Made by a program: the position numbers and the translations under genes
The notes under the pieces: generated by a model
The model's input: only the letters and a program-made list of their open reading frames with translations
What the model was told of the DNA's origin: nothing
Database searches by the model: none
Origin: Octopus vulgaris
Lineage: Eukaryota
Reading direction: 5' to 3'
NCBI GenBank assembly: GCA_951406725.2
Contig: OX597820.1
Span: 56,234,001 to 56,298,000, forward strand
DNA length: 64,000 bases
Shown here: positions 283-61,893 of the stretch, piece after piece
How positions within the stretch are numbered: position 1 is the first letter of the stretch
Layout: every line of letters begins with the position of its first letter

Positions 283-795
<513 letters not shown>

Positions 796-834
796 TGCGC
801 GGGTCATTCTCACCCGTCGTTCGAAATTTTACAA

Positions 835-1447
835 ACGAACTCCATTGTATCAGAGGATGAAAAGCTAAGTTGATACCGGCGGAATTTGAACTCAGAATGT
901 AATGAGTCAAACGTAAAGCCACAAAGCATTTTTTCTGGCATGGTAACGATTCTGCCAATAATAATCCTTTCTGCTATAGGCACAAAGCCCGAAATTTGAG
1001 CGGGGGAGGAGTAGTGGATTTTTACAGACCCCAGCACGGGACTAATGATTATTTTATCGATCCCGAAAGGATGAGAGGTAAAGTCGACCTCAGATGAATT
1101 TGAACTCGGAACGTAAAGATGGACGAAATTCCGCTAAGCATTTTGTCCGGCGCGTTAACGGTTCTGCCAGATCGTTGCTTTAACAGCAACTATACTAATA
1201 ATTCTATATTAGTGGATTCAAACTATATTAATGGTTTCAAATTTTGCCACAAGGGCAGCAATTTGGAGAGAGGGGTAAGTCACTTACATCGACCCCACTG
1301 CTCAATTGGTACTTATTTTATCGACCCTCGAAAGGATGGAAGATAAAGTCGCCCTCGGCGGAATTTGAGCTCAGAACGTAAAGATGGCCGAAATTCTGCT
1401 AAGCATTTTGCCCGGTGTGCTAACGTTTCTGCCAGCTCGCTGCCTTA
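835..1447 (-). mobile_element. Cluster of degenerate family-A tRNA-derived SINEs
   Basis: Repeated ATCGACCCCGAAAGGATGAAAGGCAAAGTCGACCTCGGCGGAATTTGAACTC-like core and GCCAGCTCGC head. Confidence 0.85.
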
Positions 1448-3522
1448 ACAGCAACTATACTAATAATTCTTTCTACTGGAAGCACAAGACATCAAATTTG
1501 GGGGAAGGGATTAAGCTTTCAATCCCCGCCTTATAAGATTTCTTACATTGACGCACAGCAGCAGACTCAAAAGGAAGGAATATTATATAATATTCCTTCT
1601 CTTTTACTATAATTTCTTTCATGTCTTTATAGGAATGCTAAATCGACCCGAATACTTGATTGGTTCTTTATTTTATCGACCCCGGAAATTTCAAAGGCAA
1701 AGTTGACCTCTTTGGGAATGAAACCGTGTATGGAAATGGCTGTAGTTAAATACCACAGATATTTTGTCCGATGCTTTAATGATCCTGCCAATGCACCGAT
1801 TGAGTTGACACCATCAATAATTGAACTCGAAAAGTAACAGAAAGGTTCTAATACTGGAAAGAATTTGACCACTCTAAGAATGACGAAAATGAGATTGGAT
1901 TTCAGTCTCAAGTTTATGTGATGTCAAACAACCGCGACTAGAAATTAACTAAGATTTCAGTATGAGTAGTACGTTAATCCATAGCTCAGTTAACTTCCTC
2001 ATCGTCTTGTTTAATTCCACATTCTGACATTGGCACAAAATGATAATTTTTTAGAATAAGGTATAGTCGATTTAATCGCTGTAAGTACATGACTGGTACT
2101 TTATCAATCCCAGGAAAAAAAAAAGCAAATTAATCTCGGTGGCATTTGAACTCAAGGATATTAAATCCAGAAACTAATACCAAATGATTCTAATTATCTA
2201 CATGTCCGTTTTATATTATCGATAGCTAGTTGTCGAGGAATTGGCGGAATCTTCAAAACATCGGACAAAATAGCATGCTGTAGTTGATTACATCGCTGTG
2301 CATCGTTCCGAGTGCTATAAAATATAATACCAGACTTGTACTAGGGCATATTTAATCAACTGTATCTACTCCGCAAGACTTTAGGCCTTGTATTTCTTCT
2401 AGAAATCTATATTATATTATCGACATCTAGATAATTTGATTTTATCAAAATGGATACTGCATAGTTTTTAATTTGACCTACAAATCTTTACGAGCATGAA
2501 CAGATTTAAGAAAACTCTATGAGCCGTTTAACAATTTTAATACATCTCAGAGATTGGAAAACATCAAAGAAACGCACGAGCCTAGGATCAGACTAAGTTG
2601 TGTACTTTACGTTAAGATGTGTGTTTTAATTAAAACTTCTGAAGACATTCTAGTTGCTATGTTTATTTCCCATCCAAGTGTTGTAATTATACTTTTATTC
2701 TGCCGTTTACAACCAATTGACGTCACTTCCTCATCCGCTTTGCCAAGACTGCGTACATTCTCCTGTTTGAAGTTATCAATGAAGCAGTAATTTTCTAAAT
2801 TGATCTATGTTGGATATTATTGTATGTAAACACTACAAAAACTGTTTGCATTTATTTTTGCCGTGTTTTTTTTTTATATAATTATTTCCAAAATAAGAGA
2901 ACTCCCGTTAGTAAGGCGGCTTTTTGACAAGTTTTGTATTGAAAGCATGAACAACTAGCGTTATGCATGGTGCTATAAACACCTTTGCTGAAACTTCAGC
3001 TACACAAATCGATAGAAAGTTTACTTGCTTAAGGAAGGTATCCTGTAATGGATTAAGTCTACAGCTGTAAAGCAGCATTATCATTTATGTCATTGCAATT
3101 GCAGCAACTGTTTAGCCTCGGGTCAACCTTGTTCGTGTTCCTCAAACCAATAGGTATATATTCATATGTGTGTGTGTTTATTCGAGCCATTCTCTGAAGG
3201 AAGGAGCTGCTTTCTAACAAAGACACAAACGCTCCATCACTAGAATACGGATAACAACGACGATAAGTACTGAGTTTTGCATATTTTTACTGTTCGATTT
3301 ACAGATTGTATCGGTAAAGATCTTTTTCCATATCTGAAAAATCCTAACTTTTTTAGACTGTCTCTTACTAACGTAACCAAGTGTATGCCAATGATTATTG
3401 GTGTAAATGTGAATTTGAGCAGCAGGTCTCGAAGCATTCGTCCATCAATATTCTCATTCCCGCTATTTTTAGAAGAGATATTTACGTCTGCAAGGCAGCT
3501 AATCTCTATAACTGTATATGAC

Positions 3523-3559
<37 letters not shown>

Positions 3560-3565
3560 GCGTGC

Positions 3566-3639
<74 letters not shown>

Positions 3640-3659
3640 CCTAACTAACTAGTGGAACT

Positions 3660-4518
3660 TCGATTTACGAATTTATTTCGTTCCTGAAAGCTATTCGTCA
3701 TTCAGAATCATAAGCATCTTGTTCCCATTTTCCTTCTAAAATAGTGTCTGTCAAATTCACCTTCTTCGGGGAAATCTGAGTATGTCAGATGTTGGTATCA
3801 GATACTGGTACTGCAAATGCATTGTGGGATTGCTTATTGCAACAGAAAAGCACTGACTTCCGTAGCTGTTTGTGCACATTGGCATCCAGAGGGCAGCTGA
3901 TTTCCACAACATATTTTTACCTTGTGATCGCACGCTATATCTAGTCTGTTGTCTTTTAACTTGGTGGCTGCCTTAATTTTTAAGTTCTCTCAATATTCTT
4001 TCGACTCATCTGTCTCAATATGGTCAACTTCGTCTGTAAATGTTTTCGTTCTTGTTATCTTGTTCCAAACTGTTCTAGCTACTCTATCATGGCTCATGGG
4101 AAAATAATATCTGGAAGACATTCTCTTGCAATTGGCAATAATGCGTTTGAAGTCTTCAGTCCTGTTTTTGCACAGCCTACATTTGTTGTCTGTCAACAAT
4201 TTCTGCCTTTCATGCTGTAGGTACCCCGTGGGTATCTTTCGAAGTGGGAGGTCATAAACTTGTCGGTACTTCATACCAATCTTTTGAGATGATCAATTCC
4301 TTCTACGGTTTGTGCTTGTCGTGTCAAGTACGCACGCACCAACTTCCCAGTGAATTGGTCCATTTGAATTTTATTTTGTTCTTTTGATAAATAGAATTTA
4401 CCGATGATTCTTTGAGAGAGATCTGTATCAGCTCTTATTTCAAGGTCATTAGCTATCCTAATTATGCTGTTGGTTTCATGATTGCAAACTTGGGAACGGT
4501 ATTTACTGATCTCTTTTC
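3660..4518 (-). mobile_element. Degenerate R4/Dong-like non-LTR retrotransposon, C-terminal region
   Basis: CRLC..E...II..C zinc knuckle, SHDRVA (RHD motif), then DNRLDI and VEISCP motifs of the restriction-like endonuclease; in-frame stops. Confidence 0.8.
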
Positions 4519-4880
4519 TATGTATGTATGTATGTATGTATGTATGTATGTATGTATGTATGTATGTATGTATGTATGTATGTATGTATGTATGTATGTA
4601 TGCATGCATGCATGCATGTATGTATGTATTACGGATGGTTATATGTATGTACGTACGTATGTATGTATGTATGTATGTATGTATGTATGTATGTATGTAT
4701 GTATGTATGTATGTATGTATGTATGTATGTATGCATGCATGCATGTATGTATGTATGTATTACGGATGGTTATATGTATGTATGTATGCATGTATGTATG
4801 TATGTATGTATGTATGTCTGCATGTATGTATGTATGTATGTATGTATGTATGTATGTATGTATGTATGTATGCATGTATG
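4519..4880. repeat. (ATGT)n microsatellite with internal duplication
   Basis: Tetranucleotide array; the interruption ATTACGGATGGTTATATG occurs twice. Confidence 0.95.
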
Positions 4881-6772: not shown

Positions 6773-7169
6773 AGGCGGCGAGCTGCCAGAAACGTTAGCA
6801 TGCCGGGCGAAATGCTTAGCGGTAATTCGTCTGCCGCTACGTTCTGAGTTCAAATTCCGCCGAGGTCGACTTTGCCTTTCATCCATTCGGGGTCGATTAA
6901 ATAAGTACCAGTTACGCACTAGGGTCGATATAATCGACTTAATCCGTTTGTCTGTCGTTGTTTGTCCTCTCTGTGTTTAGCCCCTTGTGGGTAGTAAAGA
7001 AATAGGTATTTCGTCTGCCGTTACGTTCTGAAGTCAAATTCCGCCGAGGTCGACTTTGCCTCTTCATCCTTTCGGGGTCGATAAATTAAGTACCAGTTAC
7101 GCACTGGGGTCGATATAATCGACTTAATCCCTTTGTCTGACCTTTGTCTGACCTTTGTCTGACCTTTGT
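6773..7169 (+). mobile_element. Dimeric family-A SINE, 3'-truncated in an 11-bp stutter (GACCTTTGTCT)
   Basis: GGCGGCGAGCTG head, B box GAGTTCAAATTC, second unit starting at GGTATTTCG (7005). The central segment resembles, from memory, the MetaSINE domain (unverified). Confidence 0.9.
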
Positions 7170-7210: not shown

Positions 7211-7269
7211 CTCCCCAGCGGGGAATCGAACCCCGGTCTCGCGCGTGACAGGTGGGGATATTTACCACT
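7211..7269 (-). pseudogene. 5'-truncated inverted copy of the tRNA-Asp (lacks first 13 nt)
   Basis: 7170-7269 is the exact reverse complement of 8941-9040. Confidence 0.9.
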
Positions 7270-8707
7270 TTATGCTTCAAACATTATGCTTCAAACATTA
7301 TGCTTTAAACATTATGCTTTAAACTTTATGCTTCAAACATTATGCTTCAAACATTCTTCAAACATTATGCTTCAAACATTATGCTTCAAACATTATGCTT
7401 CAAACATTATGCTTCAAACATTATGCTTTAAACATTATGCTTCAAACATTATGCTTTAAACATTATGCTTTAAACATTATGCTTTAAACTTTATGCTTTA
7501 AACTTTATGCTTCAAACTTTATGCTTCAAAAATTATGCTTCAAACATTATGCTTCAAACATTATGCTTCAAACATTATGCTTCAAACATTATGCTTCAAA
7601 CTTTATGCTTCAAACATTATGCTTTAAACATTATGCTTTAAACATTATGCTTCAAACATTATGCTTCAAACATTATGCTTCAAACATTATGCTTCAAACA
7701 TTATGCTTCAAACATTATGCTTCAAACATTATGCTTTAAACATTATGCTTTAAACATTATGCTTTAAACTTTATGCTTTAAACTTTATGCTTCAAACTTT
7801 ATGCTTCAAACATTATGCTTTAAACATTATGCTTTAAACATTATGCTTTAAACTTTATGCTTTAAACTTTATGCTTCAAACATTTATGCTTCAAACTTTA
7901 TGCTTCAAACATTATGCTTCAAACATTATGCTTTAAACTTTATGCTTCAAACTTATGCTTCAAACATTATGCTTCAAACATTATGCTTCAAACATTATGC
8001 TTCAAACATTATGCTTCAAACATTATGCTTTAAACATTATGCTTTAAACTTTATGCTTTAAACTTTATGCTTCAAACTTTATGCTTCAAACTTTATGCTT
8101 CAAACATTATGCTTCAAACATTATACTTCAAACATTATGTTTTAAACATTATGCTTCAAACATTATGCTTCAAACATTATGCTTCAAACATTATGCTTCA
8201 AACATTATGCTTTAAACATTATGCTTTAAACATTATGCTTTAAACATTATGCTTTAAACTTTATGCTTCAAACTTTATGCTTCAAACTTTATGCTTCAAA
8301 CATTATGCTTCAAACATTATGCTTCAAACATTATGCTTCAAACATTATGCTTCAAACATTATGCTTCAAACATTATGCTTCAAACATTATGCTTCAAACA
8401 TTATGCTTCAAACATTATGCTTCAAACATTATGCTTCAAACATTATGTTTTAAACATTATGCTTTAAACATTATGCTTTAAACTTTATGCTTCAAACTTT
8501 ATGCTTCAAACATTATGCTTCAAACATTATGCTTCAAACTTTATGCTTCAAACATTATGCTTCAAACATTATGCTTCAAACATTATGCTTCAAACATTAT
8601 GCTTTAAACATTATGCTTTAAACTTTATGCTTTAAACTTTAAACTTTATGCTTCATTATAATTCAAAGAATATGCTTCAAAAGTTTATACTTCAAACTTT
8701 ATGCTTC
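7270..8707. repeat. 14-bp minisatellite GCTT[C/T]AAAC[A/T]TTAT, ~100 units, degenerate at right end
   Basis: Read directly from the sequence. Confidence 0.98.
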
Positions 8708-8927: not shown

Positions 8928-8999
8928 TCCTCGGTAGTATAGTGGTAAATATCCCCACCTGTCACGCGCGAGACCGGGGTTCGATTCCCCGCTGGGGAG
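8928..8999 (+). tRNA. tRNA-Asp(GTC), probably pseudogene or defective isodecoder
   Basis: 72-nt near-match to metazoan tRNA-Asp with intact A and B boxes, acceptor stem and T-arm, and a TTTCTTTT trailer at 9007-9014. The anticodon stem CCCAC/GCGCG has two mismatches (C.C, A.C). Confidence 0.85.
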
Positions 9000-37324: not shown

Positions 37325-37955
37325 ATTTTCTACTCAAGGCATGAGGCCAAAAGTTTTGGGGGAGGTGGAAGTCGATTAGATCGACCCCAGTACGCAACTA
37401 GTACTTAATTTATCGACCTTCGAAAGGATGAAAGGCAAAGTCGATCTCGGCGTAATTTGAACTCAGAACGTAAAGACAGTCGAAATATCTATTTCTTAAC
37501 TACCCACAAGGGGCTACACACAGATGGGACAAACAAGGACAGACAAACGGATTAAGTCGATTACATCGACTCCAGTGCGTAACTGGACAGACAAACAGAT
37601 TAAGGCGATTATATCGACCCTAGTGCGTAATTGGTACTTAATTTATCGACCCCAAAGGGATGAAAGGAAAAGTCGACCTCGGCGGAATTTGAACTCAGAA
37701 CGAAAAAACAGACGAAATACCGATTTCTTTACTGCCCACAAAGGGGCTACATACAGAGTAGACAAACAACGACAGACAAACGGATTAAGTCGATTATATC
37801 GACCCCAGTGCGTAACTGGTACTTATTTAATCGACCCCGAAAGAATGAAAGGCAAAGTCGGCCTTGCGGAATTTGAACTCAGAACGTAGCGGCAGACGAA
37901 ATACCTCTAAGCATTTCGTCCGGTGTGCTAACATTTCTGCCAGCCCGCCGCCTTA
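37325..37955 (-). mobile_element. Trimeric tandem family-A SINE
   Basis: Three units with junctions at ~37489 and ~37721. Confidence 0.88.
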
Positions 37956-39818: not shown

Positions 39819-39910
39819 TTATCGGCAAGCTACGTTTCTAAGAGCAACCTTTGCCCACGAAGTCTTCCATAAAGAAATTAATAAAACAAACAAATGAATC
39901 AATAAAATTC

Positions 39911-40030
39911 AGCCACGACGTAAGAGTCACGTGGAAAGCAGAAAACAACAACAGTCAGCTGTTTGCTGTAATTCATTTAAAGTTCCTTTGCACGTTGCCA
40001 CACGTCACTTAGACTGATATCATTATAACT
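39911..40030 (+). promoter_or_regulatory. Putative NUPR1 proximal promoter
   Basis: CpG-retaining unique sequence with GACGTAA (39917-39923), GTCACGTGG E-box (39926-39934), CACGTCA CRE/ATF half-site (40001-40007) and TATAA (40024-40028), ~200 bp upstream of the ATG. Confidence 0.6.
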
Positions 40031-40231
40031 ACAACAGCCTATTAGCGTGAAGAATTTGTTTGCTCTCTCTCACTACATTAAATATTATTAATAAATTCTT
40101 ATATACTTAGAGCAAACAGAAAATTGTTGACTGAGACTTGATTCCTCGAAATTATTCGGATACGGAGACAAACTCTTTGCATGCACGGATAAATTGAATA
40201 ATAAAATAACCTTTAAAGAAACAAGTTAACA

Positions 40232-40477
40232 ATGTCTTCGCACGAAGAAAAACCAGAATACACAGATGACTTTGACGAGTATAATATTAACCAAGACAAA
40301 TTTATTCACTCCAGTCACAGTGGTAAAGGGCGGTCGAAGAAAGAAGCTGGGTTACATACCAACCATGCCGATCCAGGAGGACATACGCGCAAAACTGTTA
40401 ATAAACTTGTTAATAACAGTCATAACACCCATAAACCACATAATCCGACTGGGGAGGGTCAGGCATCAAAAAAGTGA
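40232..40477 (+). CDS. NUPR1: Nuclear protein 1 / p8 (NUPR1-family, Phospho_p8) stress-response protein, 81 aa, single coding exon
   Basis: Translation has the family core: acidic DDFDEYN, then HSGKGRSKKEA..HTNHADPGGHTRKTVNKLVN, matching the remembered human GRTKREAAANTNRPSPGGHERKLVTKLQN and insect p8 motifs. Start context ACAATG; repeat-free surroundings. Confidence 0.93.
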   Translation: MSSHEEKPEYTDDFDEYNINQDKFIHSSHSGKGRSKKEAGLHTNHADPGGHTRKTVNKLVNNSHNTHKPHNPTGEGQASKK

Positions 40478-41381: not shown

Positions 41382-41795
41382 GGCGGCGAGCTGGCAGAAA
41401 CTTTAGCATACTGAATGAAATGCTTAGCGGTATTTTGTCTGCGTTACGTTGTGAGTTCAAATTCCGCCGAGGTCGACTTTGCCTTTCATCCTTTCGGGGT
41501 CGATAAATTAAGTACCAGTTACGCACTGGGGTCGATGTAATCGACTTAATACCTATGTCTGTCCTTGTTTGTCCCCTCTGTGTTTAGCCCCTTGTGGGTA
41601 ATAAAGAAATAGGTATTTTGTCTGCCGTTATGTTCTGAGTTCAAATTCCGCCAAGGTCGACTTTGCCTTTCATCCTTTCGGGGTCGATTAAATAAGTATC
41701 AGTTTCGCACTGGTGTCGATGTTATCGACTTAATCCGTTTGTCTGTCCTTGTTTGTCCCCTCTGTGTGTAACCCCTTGTGGGCAGTAAAGAAATA
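41382..41795 (+). mobile_element. Dimeric family-A SINE inserted in a hAT MITE end
   Basis: TSD AGAATAGAGTAGTAA (41367-41381) / AGAATAGAATGGTAA (41796-41810). Confidence 0.9.
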
Positions 41796-46324: not shown

Positions 46325-48815
46325 GTTTGCAATACTAACTTCAGGAAACCTATCAATCACCTACTGACACACTAGTCAGATTGACTACATCCTCACCAGG
46401 AAAAGGGAACGATGGCTACTTATAAATGCCAACACCTACCCAGGCGAAGAATAGACTAGTAGTTAGCAACTTCAAGATCAGGGATAAATGGATGCCCAGA
46501 AGACGACCAGCATGGAGGAGAAGGGTTTGGAAGCTTAAAGATCTTGCAAATGGACAGAGATTTAGAGATGTATTATTCGAAGCTTTTGACGAAATAGAGG
46601 GGGATGTAGCATCACCTTATGTGGAAGACAACTGGAGGTTTCTATGGGATAACATGCTGAGGGCCACTGTGGATGGTGCAAAGTCCCCTCTCGACCCAAG
46701 GTAACATGGTGGTGGAACAATGTTGTTGACAGGGCCATTAGGAAAAAGAAACGGCTTGGAAGGTCTGGAAGAATGGTGGTAGCAGGGAATCATATCTGAC
46801 TGCTAAAAGGGAAGCTAGGAGACAGGCTTATTTAACCAGGGGAGAAGCAGATAAGAAAAAATTTGCCAATGTTCTGCACCGTGAGGACCAAAGACTTGAG
46901 GTATCTTGTGCTGTGAGAGAGAATCGTGATGTCATAGAAGAGAAATGTGTTTGCATGGATGATGGTTCACTTGCATTAAACGAGACTGCAAAGAGAGAAG
47001 TAAGGAGATGCCACTATGAAAAGTTGCTAAATAAAGAGAATGAACGGGAGAATGAGGAAACTAGGGATAGATGAATGGTTAGTGAGAGCTGTGCAAGCCA
47101 TGTACAGGGACGCTGTCAGTAAGGTGAGGATTGGCAACAAGTACTGTGAAGAATTCCAGGTAGAGGTTAGAGTCTACCAAGGTTCAGTCCTCAGCCCCCT
47201 CCTATTTATCATAGTCCTCCAGGCAATAACAGAGGAATTCAAAACAGGATGCCCTTGGGAGCTCCTCTATACTGATGACCTTGTCTTATTGCTGAGTCAC
47301 TATCAGAACTAGAGAAGTTTCAGGTGTGGAAGCAAGGATTAGAATCAAAGGCCTTAGAGTCAATCTAGCTAAAACCAAAGTCTTAATAAGTAGGAAGGCA
47401 GACTAACCATAAATACCTTCAGGTAGATGGCCCTGCTTGATTTGTAGAAAAGGCGTAGGTAGAAACTCTATAAGATGTACCCAGTGCATGCTATGGACAC
47501 ATAAGAGGTACAGCAATATCAAAGGAAGGCTAACTGGGAAGATAGTTTTTGTATGTGGCAGATGCTCAGGAGCAATAAACACTGGAAATGTGCAGAGAAC
47601 AACTTCTGTCACATTCCAGGGAGAAAAACTAGAAGTAGTTAACAGCTTCCATTACCTAGGTGACCAAGTCACTTGTTGGGGTGGATGCTCTGAAAGTGTA
47701 GCTGCTAGAATAAGAATAGCCTGGGCAAAGTTCAGAGAGCTCCTACCTCTGCTGGTGACAAAGGGCCTCTCGCCCAGAGTAGAAGGTAGACTGTATGACG
47801 CATGTGTACAAACAGCCATGCTACATGGTAGTGAAATATGGGTGGTGACTGCTGAGGACATGTGTAAGCTTGCAAGGAAAGAAGTCAGTATACTCTGCTG
47901 GATGGGTAATGTCAGTGTGTATACTCGACAGAGTGTAAATACCTTGAGAGAAAAGTTGGACCTAAGAAGCATCAGATGTGGTGTGCAAGAGAGACGACTG
48001 CATTGGTATGGAAATGTGGTGCAAATGGATGAGGACAGCTGTATGAAAACGTGTCACACCCTAGCAGTTGAGGGAATCTGTAGAAGAGGTAGAACCAGGA
48101 ATACCTGGGATGAGGTGGTGAAGCATGACCTTCAAACATTGGGCCTTACTGAAGCAATGACTAGTGACCGAGACCTCTGGAAATATGCTGTGCTTGAGAA
48201 GACCCGGCAAGCCAAGTGAGACCATAACTTGTGGCCTATCCCTATGCCAGTGGTGCAACCAGCCTGCTTATGTGTTACTTGTGAAGACCTGTTGAGGCAA
48301 GTGAAATCACAATCAAAATCAAATTCTCTGATGTGGCCAATTACAGCACTGCCTGACTGGCACCTGTGCCAGTGGAATGTTAAAAGCACCATCCAAGCAT
48401 GATCGTTGCTAGGGCCACTGATTGGCTCCTGTGCCAGTGACATATAAAAAGCACGATTTGAGGTTGATCGTTACCAGCGTTGCCTTACTGGCACTTGTGC
48501 CGGTAGCACGTGAAAAACAACATTTGAGTGCCGTCATTGCCAGTGTTGTTGGACTGGCTCCTGTGCAGGTGGCACATAAAAAACACCATTTGAGTGTGGC
48601 TGTCGCCAGTACTGCCTGACTGGCCCTCGTACCAGTGGCACATAAAAGCACCCGCTACACTCTCAGAGTGGTTGGCATTAGGAAGGGCATCCAGCTGTAT
48701 AAACTCTGCCAGATCAGACTGGAGCCTGGTGCGGCCATCTGGCTTGCCAGTCCTCAGTCAAACCATCCAACCAATGCCAGCATGGGAAGCAGACGTTAAA
48801 TGATGATGATGATGA
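46325..48815 (+). mobile_element. RTE-clade LINE, 5'-truncated, internally deleted, pseudogenised
   Basis: APE tail SQIDYIL, RT motifs QGSVLSPLLF and YTDD, FHYLG, RLHWYGNV..GRTRNTW; 3'UTR ending in (TGA)n. A junction near 47040 removes the N-terminal RT domains. Confidence 0.92.
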
Positions 48816-49399: not shown

Positions 49400-49815
49400 A
49401 AGGCGGCGAGCTGGCAGAAACGTTAGCACGCCGGGCGAAATGCTTAGCGGTATTTCGTCTGCCGTTACGTTGTGAGTTCAAATTCTGCCGAGGTCAACTT
49501 TGCCTTTCATCCTTTCGGGGTCGATAAATTAAGTACCGGTTACGCACTGGGGTCGATGTAATCGACTTAATACCTATGTCTGTCCTTGTTTGTCCCCTCT
49601 GTGTTTAGCCCCTCGTGGGTAATAAAGAAATAGGTATTTCGTCTGCGTTACGTTGTGAGTTCAAATTCCGGCGAGGTCGACTTTGCCTTTCATCCTTTCG
49701 GGGTCGATAAATTAAGTACCAGTTACGCACTGGGGTCGATGTAATCAACTTAATACCTATGTCTGTCCTTGTTTGTCCGTTCTGTGTTTAGCCCCTTGTG
49801 GGTAATAAAGAAATA
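49400..49815 (+). mobile_element. Young dimeric family-A SINE with perfect 14-bp TSD
   Basis: GGTATCTATTACTT at 49386-49399 and 49816-49829. Confidence 0.93.
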
Positions 49816-58418: not shown

Positions 58419-58991
58419 TAACTTAGCATAAAAATAAAAATATTTATATCATATATTATACAGAGAATACCACCGAGAGGCTTTGGATAAAGAGGGCAAA
58501 CCAGTGGTGTGCTGCTATTGAGATGCAGTCTGGGTCATGATAATCCCGGTTGGGTCAAGTGAGGGAAGGGATCTGATGTTAGAAGATCCAAAACCCTCTT
58601 AGATACTAGAAACATCAATGACGATGCATCTCGGGTAACCGCAAGATGTATTTTAAAACTGAAATGTGTGTGTGTGTATAGATCGTTTGAAATATATATG
58701 TGTGTCTGTGTGTGGGGGGGTATTGTTATACATGGGAATGGTCATATTTTGCCAATTGAATACACGCATTATATATTTGATCTTCACTTCAGCTTTATTA
58801 TTGTTATTTTTGTTTCTTTGTCAAAGCTCTTCAATGATTCACTGTCTCTTCCTGTTCTACTTATTTCATTTTTGGAATAAGTAGGACAAGAGGAGACACG
58901 TGGAGTAAAAAGTCATTGAAGAGGTCATAGGATGTATGACGAAAGAGTTTTGACAAAGAAACTAAAATAATAATAATAATAATAATAATAA

Positions 58992-59420
58992 TTTGCATTG
59001 GAAAATATGTAAACACTACAAAATCAGCACTCCTGCTTACTGGTATGAACATCATCCTGAGCCAGTTGTTGAAGGTAAAAATGTCACTATCCTCTGGGAT
59101 TTTCCAGTCAACACTGACAGAATGATCCAAGCTAATCGACCAGATATAGTCATTAAAGACTGAGAAAGGGATGTCAAAAATATATCGATAATATCCCAGG
59201 AGAACCATGTCTCAGAAAAATCCAAAAGATTGTGCTGACAAGTACTGCCCACATCCTTAGAAAAAATTCCTATTAATTTAAATGTCTGTGTTGTATTACA
59301 TGAAGATATTTTGCAACTTCCCCTCCACCAGCTGTCAGCCATACTGTAACATCTCTTAACCTTCACTCACCCTAGGATGCTGGGTATGTCTCAGCAAGTG
59401 ATTGTAACAAACATTAGGCA
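58992..59420 (+). mobile_element. R4/Dong-like retrotransposon 3' fragment adjoining (TAA)n
   Basis: LHWKICKHY..WYEHHPEPVVEGKNVTILWDFPVNTDRMIQANRPDIVIKD restriction-like endonuclease motif directly after (AAT)n at ~58966-58991. Confidence 0.85.
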
Positions 59421-59421
59421 G

Positions 59422-59970
59422 TAGCTCTCATGGCTTCTGATCTTAACTGATTGGAAGTGTTATCATGTACATTGTTTTGTCTTGGTATAAAAGCTAGGCT
59501 ACAGCAAATATTCTGCTCAATACCACAGATTTGCTCGTCAGTTGCTTGACCTTAACCAGTTGAGTATGTCCCTTAGTGGCTGACGATATGTGCATCTCTG
59601 ATCATTAGCAGAAGGAGTTGGGGAGCATCATAGCCATGTGTTGAGGGGGATTCTTTGGGGTTTGGATAATTCACCATTGGAAACATAGGTGTTTCATTCA
59701 ACATCCTTAAACAACCCTTATTCAGGGTCCTTTTGAGTGGAATGGGCTACTCGACCTGAGGAAAATTCTAACTGGGCCCCCACCTGCAAGGCTATGCGCT
59801 GTTTATTTTGATATGAGATCACTATGTCGTGCACATATGGTTTTGATGCATGTGCCTGGTGTACCCTTATCAGACGGGTAGTCATGATGGGTATACTGAG
59901 CTTCATATATTTTACCTCAGTGTCACTTTGATGCTATGCACTGCTTTCTCACTTAATAATAATAATAATA
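59422..59970 (+). mobile_element. Unclassified retroelement 3' end with (AAT)n tail
   Basis: GC-richer block ending in TAATAATAATAATAATA; family not identified. Confidence 0.4.
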
Positions 59971-60689
59971 GTAAACCTGAAGTGAAGACCAAATACATAG
60001 TGCGTGTGTTTACTTGGCAAAATTTGACCATACCCAAATATATGTTTGGAAGTTTGTAAGTGTTAGCATGTTTTTGTGTCTGTGTGTTCGTGAGGCGTAA
60101 AAAGTACTGACCAGTGAAATGACGATGGAATTTGCTTCACAGTTCATGTTGTTGGTATCAGCCTGGCAACAGGTAATAACAGATGGCTTAAGGTAGTTCT
60201 TAGAAGAAACTAGAACCCAAGAACAGATAATTGATTTACCGTTTATGAGGTACAGTGTAAGAGTTCCATATCAAGATGTTGTGTCTCATAGTTGAGGTTA
60301 ATTGAATCACTCGTTGTGTTTATCTTTCTCTTGATATGAATATACTTCCAGATGTGTTAACTGTAGCCGTTTTTTCCGTGGTGAGATTTTCACCTAACCG
60401 CTATAGCTGAATCTGTAGTTGTCTTGTGTACAAATTAAATCTTCGATGTTTGTCGATGTCTGTCGCTTGGTTTTTGCTGCGTCTTCATTATATATTCTGC
60501 TTGGTTATTTTTCTCTAGTTATAGATATCCTGTAACCGTTTTTTTCCGTGGTGATATTTTCACACTAACAGTATGAGAGGTATCTGTAACATCTTGTATT
60601 AATGGTGGTCGCCTGCCTTTCGAAACTGGAACATGGTCGAGTATGCTCTGTGTGGTCAGAGGTTAGCCCTGAGAAGGACTTGAAACCTA

Positions 60690-60875
60690 AGACGGATATT
60701 TGTCTGAGAAACCTTCTTTTATACAGTTTATTGGGCTCAAAATGAACTTCAGAAATGGAAAGCTGTGATTGGCTGCTTGGAACTATGGCGCGAAAATAAG
60801 CGGAGGCAAATCGCGTCACGTGATAACCAGCGGTGCGAACGTAGTAGAGACCACGTGTCAGCCAATCGAATTAGT
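60690..60875 (-). promoter_or_regulatory. CpG-rich Pol II promoter oriented leftwards
   Basis: Minus-strand TATAAAAG (60723-60716), three CCAAT boxes (~60730, ~60768, ~60862), E2F-like TTTTCGCGCC (60796-60787), E-boxes GTCACGTGA (~60815-60823) and CCACGTG (60851-60857). Confidence 0.65.
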
Positions 60876-60989
60876 GTTTACAACAATGTTGAACTAGCCG
60901 AAGATGTTTGTAATTTCGACCGAGGTTATTCTTAATACTCTTCTCAAACAGTGAAGATAGCAATGAGAACGATATTGCTACAGAAGCAT

Positions 60990-61335
60990 TCAATAGCGCG
61001 GATATGCGCCACCTCATAGGTTTATATATACTCGATACTTTAAGCAAGCGGTTCCCGCCAGTCCACTTTAATCTCTGCAGTAATGACGCTTTAGCCGTCT
61101 CAAGAAGCGCAAACGGGCACAACCAGGACAGGTTTAAGAAGAACCTGATTTACACGCTTAGCCCCTATTGGTTGTAAGGTTATAATGGAGATCAACCTTA
61201 CAGTAGTTAACTTTTTAGATGTTACGCTCCATTTGGGCAACCGTTCATACTTGCTCTACCTCAGGCCAAAGGAAAAGCTGTCGTATATTAAAACAGCCTT
61301 CTGTCACCTGCCTATTGTGCTTAAAAACCTGGAGA
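60990..61335 (+). mobile_element. Penelope-like reverse transcriptase fragment
   Basis: LIGLYILDTL...LCSNDAL (decayed LYRDDGL)...INLTVVNFLDVTL...YLRPKEKLSYI...CHLP; frameshifted. Confidence 0.8.
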
Positions 61336-61573
61336 AGGGTGACCGGCCATAACCAATGATATACTAAAATACATAAAATATAATGGCTCAAAAATACTTT
61401 TAGAGTGTTTTTTGTTTCTGATTTATGGACAACTGACCGGTTATATATATATATATATATATGGCTTGCTCGCTTAGCCAGCTGGGTGGCGTCGTTTGAA
61501 GGCTAAAACGATGTGAAGCACATTGTGACCAGCGATGTGTAGCAACATCCGATAGCCTGGTCGGTCACGTGAT

Positions 61574-61649: not shown

Positions 61650-61699
<50 letters not shown>

Positions 61700-61759
61700 C
61701 CATGTTGATTCGCTAGCCTCTGCACGCATTTTTTTCTCTCCGTGTTTCTTTTCTGTGTA

Positions 61760-61797
61760 TCTTTCTGTTGAAGAGCGTAGGCTCGAAACGTTAAAGA
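61760..61797 (+). ncRNA. Hammerhead-like motif (A6>U core variant) in a short repeat flanked by (TA)n
   Basis: UCUUU-CUGUUGA-A-GAGC(GUAG)GCUC-GAAA-CG-UU-AAAGA: same architecture as 23422-23467. Confidence 0.5.
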
Positions 61798-61893
61798 CTT
61801 GTTTTATTTATATTCCTGAGCGCCATACTAATACAATTGTTTGTTTGTATTCCACCTGCCTTCGTCTTTTGTTTATTTTCATAAAGCTTCCCG

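Follow-up and report, generated by a model that had tools for sequence, protein, structure and literature searches.

Two near-identical cores of about 41 nt, each enclosed in a stem, lie within 60349-60590 of a 64,000-nt stretch of Octopus vulgaris DNA (contig OX597820.1, positions 56,234,001 to 56,298,000; here, the window), and they raise the question of whether the octopus carries an undescribed regulatory RNA at this place or whether the modules have a more ordinary source. The original prediction favored a repeated protein-binding or regulatory RNA element, with a conserved core and independently maintained stems, in DNA free of transposable elements (TEs). Here, we report that the DNA around the cores is a copy of a dispersed TE and not unique sequence. 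The locus is probably an octopus solo LTR that carries a leader hairpin in duplicate, and we give a probability of roughly one-half to the reading that the twin motifs are a tandem duplication within it which likely serves as hairpin signals in the leader of the element's RNA.

Results

Twin cores and their flanks. Core A occupies 60361-60400 and core B 60530-60571. The two are 3 substitutions and 2 one-base indels apart, and their local alignment score of 58 was reached by 0 of 300 shuffles, the highest of which scored 23. Each contains the inner GTGA-5nt-TCAC hairpin beside a run of six or seven T's, as originally described. The enclosing stems are likewise present: that of B (60518-60529 with 60579-60590) has 12 pairs, 2 of them G-U on the plus strand, and that of A (60357-60367 with 60400-60410) is paired at 10 of 11 places (with 2 G-U pairs and one A.C on the plus strand) and is extended by 5 basal pairs. 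It was also correctly anticipated that plus-strand G-U pairs become A.C on the minus strand; four such pairs were found in the outer stems.

The flanks, which had been thought not to be alignable, proved to be related. Upstream of the cores they match at 20 of 27 positions (6 of 300 shuffles were as high), and a single local alignment of A with B covers 144 columns, including both flanks; the downstream match (19 of 27, equaled by 79 of 300 shuffles) is not significant alone. Since the flanks are partly alignable, we regard the modules as an internal tandem duplication. Compared with A, B is short of about 15 bases just ahead of the core; in its outer stem, a different 5′ arm is paired with a 3′ arm that is homologous to that of A. 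The cores are more alike (36 of 40 positions) than the flanks (39 of 54; P = 0.04, for a core that was picked after the match had been seen). Thus, the stems exist as predicted, but the case for their independent maintenance is weakened by the duplication origin, the common 3′ arm, and the improbability of the B outer stem in its context (see below).

A dispersed repeat of 922 bp. Twenty public runs from 11 studies cover part of 60050-61100, and the contigs of 4 of these were aligned to 59975-61430. In all four, 60061-60982 proved to be repetitive, with numerous dispersed and diverged copies that share their ends. The aligned contigs numbered 188, 96, 628, and 550 per run, some of them deriving from the neighboring element, and in three of the four runs most were less than 95% alike. 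Among the matches listed, contig pieces start at 60062 and stop at 60982 or 60983; two contigs (1780 nt and 534 nt) match only as far as 60983 and then continue into other DNA. Over the right flank there is one exact piece of 492 nt, and in X7 a 526-nt contig crosses the right junction in exact agreement with the window. Summed depth in run X7, which is not a copy number, was 345-4700 across 60024-61003 versus 9-61 at 61004-61430, with a sharp edge. We take the contigs that depart from the window at 60684 to be diverged subfamilies and not element ends, since one of them goes on in sequence resembling that of the window. Self-comparison revealed no second copy of the 922-bp repeat within the window itself, and no empty insertion site was among the matches listed for the contigs of the four runs.

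Both cores sit within this multi-copy repeat, so the surrounding DNA is not TE free. Because the cores belong to a high-copy TE, we find no support for a regulatory RNA of the host in unique DNA; what survives of the proposed conserved RNA element is the idea of a repeated, structured motif with a shared predicted minus-strand fold and no Rfam match.

Evidence for a solo LTR. The 922-bp repeat is very probably the solo LTR of an octopus retrotransposon. Its termini are TGT...ACA with a 7/8 inverted repeat, and they coincide with the independently fixed contig breaks; of 63050 window positions, 43 have TGT...ACA at 922-bp spacing. The two copies of a putative 4-bp target-site duplication (left, 60057-60060; right, 60983-60986) match at 3 of 4 bases, a degree of likeness expected by chance at 3930 of 63050 positions (6%); 2 of the 43 positions with correctly spaced termini also have such a 4-mer match. 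Reading of the flanks revealed no TGG primer site, polypurine tract, or internal region on either side of the repeat, and no paired LTR was seen; for this reason, we infer its LTR status and its orientation (minus strand, from the promoter) rather than reading them off directly.

The putative U3 promoter (60716-60982, minus strand) includes the leftward TATA box of the original prediction, located at 60723-60716, together with CCAAT boxes at 60772-60768 and 60862-60866, E-boxes at 60817-60822 and 60852-60857, and a site at 60787-60796 that we take to be E2F-like. The observed/expected CpG ratio is 1.33 in this region versus 0.69 in the window. A CCAAT box some 80 bases ahead of the predicted start and the sequence TATAAAAG both suit leftward transcription from about 60693. 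In run X17, contig depth falls to the right of the TATA box, although contigs show neither start, strand, nor level. Such features (TG...CA ends, a TATA box, and stem-loops after the start) are described as general to LTRs (PMC3601003, PMC2664473).

No AATAAA or ATTAAA lies downstream of the TATA box on the minus strand of the repeat; the sole minus-strand AATAAA (60732-60727) is upstream of it and is altered in the majority of other copies in three of the four runs, position 60732 differing in 38/53, 179/352, 278/335, and 284/406 depth units in the four runs. As read from the sequence, a weak variant hexamer on the minus strand (60246-60241) precedes a U/G-rich tract. On the plus strand, ATTAAA at 60434 is followed by a GT-rich run. 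The LTR may instead read from left to right, because of this plus-strand signal, because the four G-U pairs favor the plus strand, and because T-rich U3 regions are reported for the Sushi and rGmr1 LTRs (PMC3601003).

Predicted fold of the modules. As delimited on the minus strand, module A (60349-60415) comprises a core (here 60361-60401), a helix (60366-60371 with 60396-60401), an inner hairpin (60380-60394), an A-rich bulge, and a continued outer stem; module B (60518-60590) has the corresponding core (here 60530-60572), helix (60535-60540 with 60567-60572), inner hairpin (60551-60563), and A-rich bulge, with a 12-bp outer stem that is predicted to be unstable in context. When 60061-60720 was folded, this B outer stem had a pair probability of 0.00 on the plus and 0.18 on the minus strand. 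Pair probabilities in module A shift with the stretch folded, from 0.25 to 0.8-0.9. Folded alone, A had z-scores of -2.6 (plus) and -3.0 (minus) and B of -2.1 (plus) and -1.2 (minus); these energies are unexceptional, since of 150 tiles of 80 nt drawn at random from the window, 14 have a z-score of -2.5 or lower on whichever strand folds better. The fold of the whole region had a z-score of only -1.1.

Modules A and B are predicted to fold alike on the minus strand, each as a helix with an A-rich bulge and a small hairpin, and the predicted pairs common to both number 13 on that strand versus 5 on the plus strand. The conserved part of the fold consists of a 6-bp helix, an unpaired purine-rich side, and the GUGA/UCAC hairpin; the long outer stem is not included. 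In the shared minus-strand fold, 19 of 20 cells are paired, compared with 25-70% when the fold is slid. Of the three substitutions between the cores, one is compensated (G-C to A-U), but as 237 of 500 shuffles do equally well, two copies cannot prove covariation.

Variation among copies. Two X17 contigs run from A into B with 10 and 21 other letters, which indicates that the twin layout is a trait of the family. Among the differences listed, other copies are substituted at 60530, 60541, and 60543 and have lost bases at 60546, 60548, and 60556, and all six of these changes miss the shared helices. A junction that skips 60522-60599 in three of the four runs, a weak signal with a short side of 25 letters, hints that some copies of the element may be without module B, and one X10 contig fuses a B-like flank to an A-like core. 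Plus-strand T>C places in the contigs were as common in the large runs (23 and 22) as in X17 and X10 (27 and 18), neither of which is recorded as RNA. Of the 40 differences listed, none falls at any of the four A.C positions; coming from contigs, these differences cannot show editing.

Other hairpins of the element. A bulged hairpin at 60660-60688 (minus strand; z-score, -3.2; 1 of 200 shuffles) follows directly upon the predicted start at about 60693, a placement like that of TAR-type R hairpins. Its pair probability was 0.95-0.97 in whole-region folds, and it contains a U-G pair on the minus strand that is C.A on the plus strand. A unit comprising 60645-60694 is tandem in X14 and X17 contigs, and other copies have it with changed sequence; by eye, the changed-stem version still pairs, and this unit may be a better target for covariation than the twin modules. 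The 44-nt unit of the start-site hairpin recurs in diverged form at 60191-60233 (minus strand), 470 bases downstream of the first copy; this second copy aligns with 60660-60702 at a score matched by 1 of 300 shuffles. A third hairpin (60265-60340, minus strand) has a 12-bp closing stem, adjoins module A, and has z-scores of -3.1 on the minus and -1.2 on the plus strand.

Known families and systems. In an Rfam scan of the region, 0 of 4227 families reached the gathering score, in agreement with the original impression that the modules match no recognized RNA family; five hits at E values of 1.3-7.6 were all far below threshold. Hammerhead, HDV-like, and twister ribozymes, H/ACA RNA, pre-miRNA, SECIS, and telomerase RNA were set aside by eye against their known motifs, and none had Rfam support. 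Scans for the 20-base core gave 10 metagenome and 2 viral loci; we take these to be chance matches and not relatives, the likeness ending at 20-30 bases. Of 409 stop-to-stop frames, 229 passed a complexity filter; 109 of these, together with 5 longer frames (114 in all), were searched against Pfam, and none of those within the element had a match.

The ENE is described as two U-runs that face each other across an internal loop, with one helix below and one above (PMC12501189, PMC7583470). Were the plus strand the RNA, the modules, like the ENEs of LTR retrotransposons covered in those reports, would place U-runs in the hairpins of an LTR element; unlike them, the likely RNA strand here carries A-runs, and the runs do not face each other. 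A geometry scan of both strands of 60061-60982 led us to reject the ENE, as the U-runs of the modules do not face between two helices; the one weak hit (60449-60475) lies elsewhere and is without these U-runs. TRIM elements, characterized as two short LTRs with a primer site and purine tract in less than 1 kb, and Helenus, which has a tRNA-like part (PMC10886601), were likewise rejected, since self-comparison revealed no terminal direct repeats and the element contains no tRNA match.

The closest likeness is to the solo LTRs of animal Ty3/Gypsy elements (Metaviridae), with which, on the accounts cited (PMC3601003, PMC6238403, PMC13282606), the repeat shares TGT...ACA ends, a short inverted repeat, a candidate short target-site match, dispersed copies, a putative TATA promoter, and hairpins after the predicted start. 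It differs in its length (922 bp, versus training-set means of 174-695 bp; PMC3601003) and, in this copy, in having no AATAAA after the TATA box. In O. bimaculoides, the de novo LTR elements are reported to be all Gypsy, with the CsRN1 clade common in cephalopods (PMC6238403); CsRn1-like Gypsy elements are stated to make 4-bp duplications (PMC2582038), and recently active Ty3-like families are described in O. vulgaris (PMC13282606). The core motif did not appear in the supplements of PMC13282606 or in the readable ones of PMC6238403.

With retroviral R/U5 stem-loops (TAR-like; the HML and MLV R hairpins, as presented in PMC2664473), the element has in common a bulged hairpin at the predicted start and more hairpins in R/U5. 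Here, in contrast, one module is duplicated and variable in number, and the likeness drawn is one of placement. Similarly, the single-stranded purines of MMTV SL4 (PMC8096270) resemble the modules in that a single-stranded purine run, predicted in our case, lies on a hairpin of the 5′ leader. However, in SL4 the purines occupy an apical loop with a GGAG core established by binding and packaging tests, while those considered here are in a predicted A-rich bulge.

Discussion

How might a pair of such modules have arisen? The repeat at 60061-60982 is multi-copy with fixed TGT...ACA ends, and both modules stem from one block. The solo LTR presumably was left behind after recombination between the two LTRs of an insertion. 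As its putative promoter would fire leftward from the TATA box at 60723, the minus strand would be the RNA, and the modules would lie about 100-180 and 280-345 nt into R/U5. Each is predicted to fold there as a 6-bp helix with an unpaired purine-rich bulge and a GUGA/UCAC hairpin. Template switching can change module number, and we speculate that copying errors or template switching by reverse transcriptase altered the number of modules in this family. MMTV Gag is reported to bind unpaired purines (PMC8096270); by analogy, the exposed purines may be sites for Gag or for a host protein in packaging or translation. At the present locus, the modules probably are passengers. A more ambitious suggestion, which we offer tentatively and consider rather doubtful, is that the module represents a previously undescribed RNA motif that acts in cis in an octopus LTR family, preserved by compensatory changes, acquired or lost as a block, and multiplied as a protein-binding site for the packaging or translation of a long leader.

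A close rival of the leader-signal reading is that, in the same solo LTR, the twin modules are a neutral internal duplication without function, the hairpins having merely eased slippage. The alignable flanks of A and B, the variation of the modules in number and sequence among copies (likewise seen for the 60645-60694 unit), the unexceptional z-scores, and the nonsignificant covariation would all be expected on this account. We nevertheless consider it unlikely, as the core is more alike than its flanks and as the differences between A and B, together with those listed in other copies, spare the shared helices. The cores could also act as DNA, being duplicated factor-binding sites of the LTR: enhancer repeats of U3 if the element reads from left to right, or else sites downstream of the start. 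U3 tandem repeats are described as common and able to regulate transcription (PMC3601003), sequence identity between the cores outweighs covariation, and the plus strand is T-rich, with ATTAAA at 60434; but the classical promoter motifs face left at their usual spacing, and the minus strand gives the better fold for the third hairpin and for both copies of the start-site hairpin, so that we consider this option improbable.

The remaining alternatives concern the element as a whole. That the 922-bp repeat is a nonautonomous DNA transposon, or some other element with TG...CA ends, is very improbable: although Ginger elements likewise have TGT termini and generate duplications of 4 bp (PMC2836005), and although no internal LTR region is seen here, the inverted repeat is 8 bp versus the about 40-270 bp needed for Ginger (PMC2836005), on which ground we rejected that transposon, and a complete polymerase II promoter lying one-quarter of the way along the repeat is in keeping with an LTR. 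We give even less credence to the idea that stacked hairpins fold a long R and bring the poly(A) signal before the TATA box near a distant cleavage site, as in HTLV-1. The only minus-strand AATAAA does lie just before the TATA box, several hairpins follow the start, and the same order is described in deltaretroviruses (PMC2664473), yet position 60732 is variable in the contigs of all four runs and the z-score of the whole-region fold is weak. Least credible of all is the reading of the modules as unique DNA that specifies a regulatory RNA of the host or a substrate of ADAR. In its favor are a strong predicted promoter upstream and the four G-U pairs of the plus strand that are A.C on the minus strand; against it, the surrounding DNA is a dispersed repeat, the frames tested between 58538 and 63769 have no Pfam match, and the nearest host gene that we found is 19.6 kb away.

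Under the leader-signal reading that we prefer, a solo LTR with R/U5 hairpins is ordinary, and a false lead for a new host RNA is removed. If the module is functional, it would be an RNA signal of a mollusc LTR family in which both the start hairpin and the twin module vary in number, and this would provide a natural number series for asking what such signals do. A literature search by title and the start of the abstract found no paper on cephalopod LTR RNA hairpins. The family itself may already be catalogued in the repeat libraries behind PMC13282606 and PMC6238403.

Neighborhood of the element

The left neighbor of the repeat is an inverted-repeat element (58727-60042) with arms of 88 bp (83%) and further arms nested inside them, which later insertions seem to have split; its arm ends 18 bases from the LTR. 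The right flank is low-depth DNA, in which a second TATA-like run and an E2F-like site (61022-61060, plus strand) face away from the LTR. Further to the right, 61690-61890 (plus strand) is T-rich between TA microsatellites. Near 61767-61790 it has a short hairpin and then GAAAC, reminiscent of the minimal hammerheads of Penelope-like repeats; Rfam gives no hit there at gathering score.

The LTR promoter faces, from 19.6 kb downstream, a NUPR1/p8 frame (40217-40474, plus strand; ATG at 40233) that matches PF10195 (E value, 4e-22) and is 89% identical to an Octopus bimaculoides protein. The region (39900-40477) looks intronless, with several ACGT-core sites upstream. Broken coding remains of a non-LTR retrotransposon occupy 46742-48219 (plus strand), with a weak RVT_1 match at 47031-47309 (E value, 1e-6, below the cutoff). 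An Rfam tRNA match of 45.6 bits with mismatched stems (8928-8999, plus strand) may be a tRNA gene, a pseudogene, or the head of a SINE, and a long minisatellite with a 14-base period extends over 7267-8540. Finally, direct repeats about 184 bases apart (at 6850, 26990, 37454-37700, 41452-41560, and 49473-49630) suggest a family that inserts as short tandem dimers.
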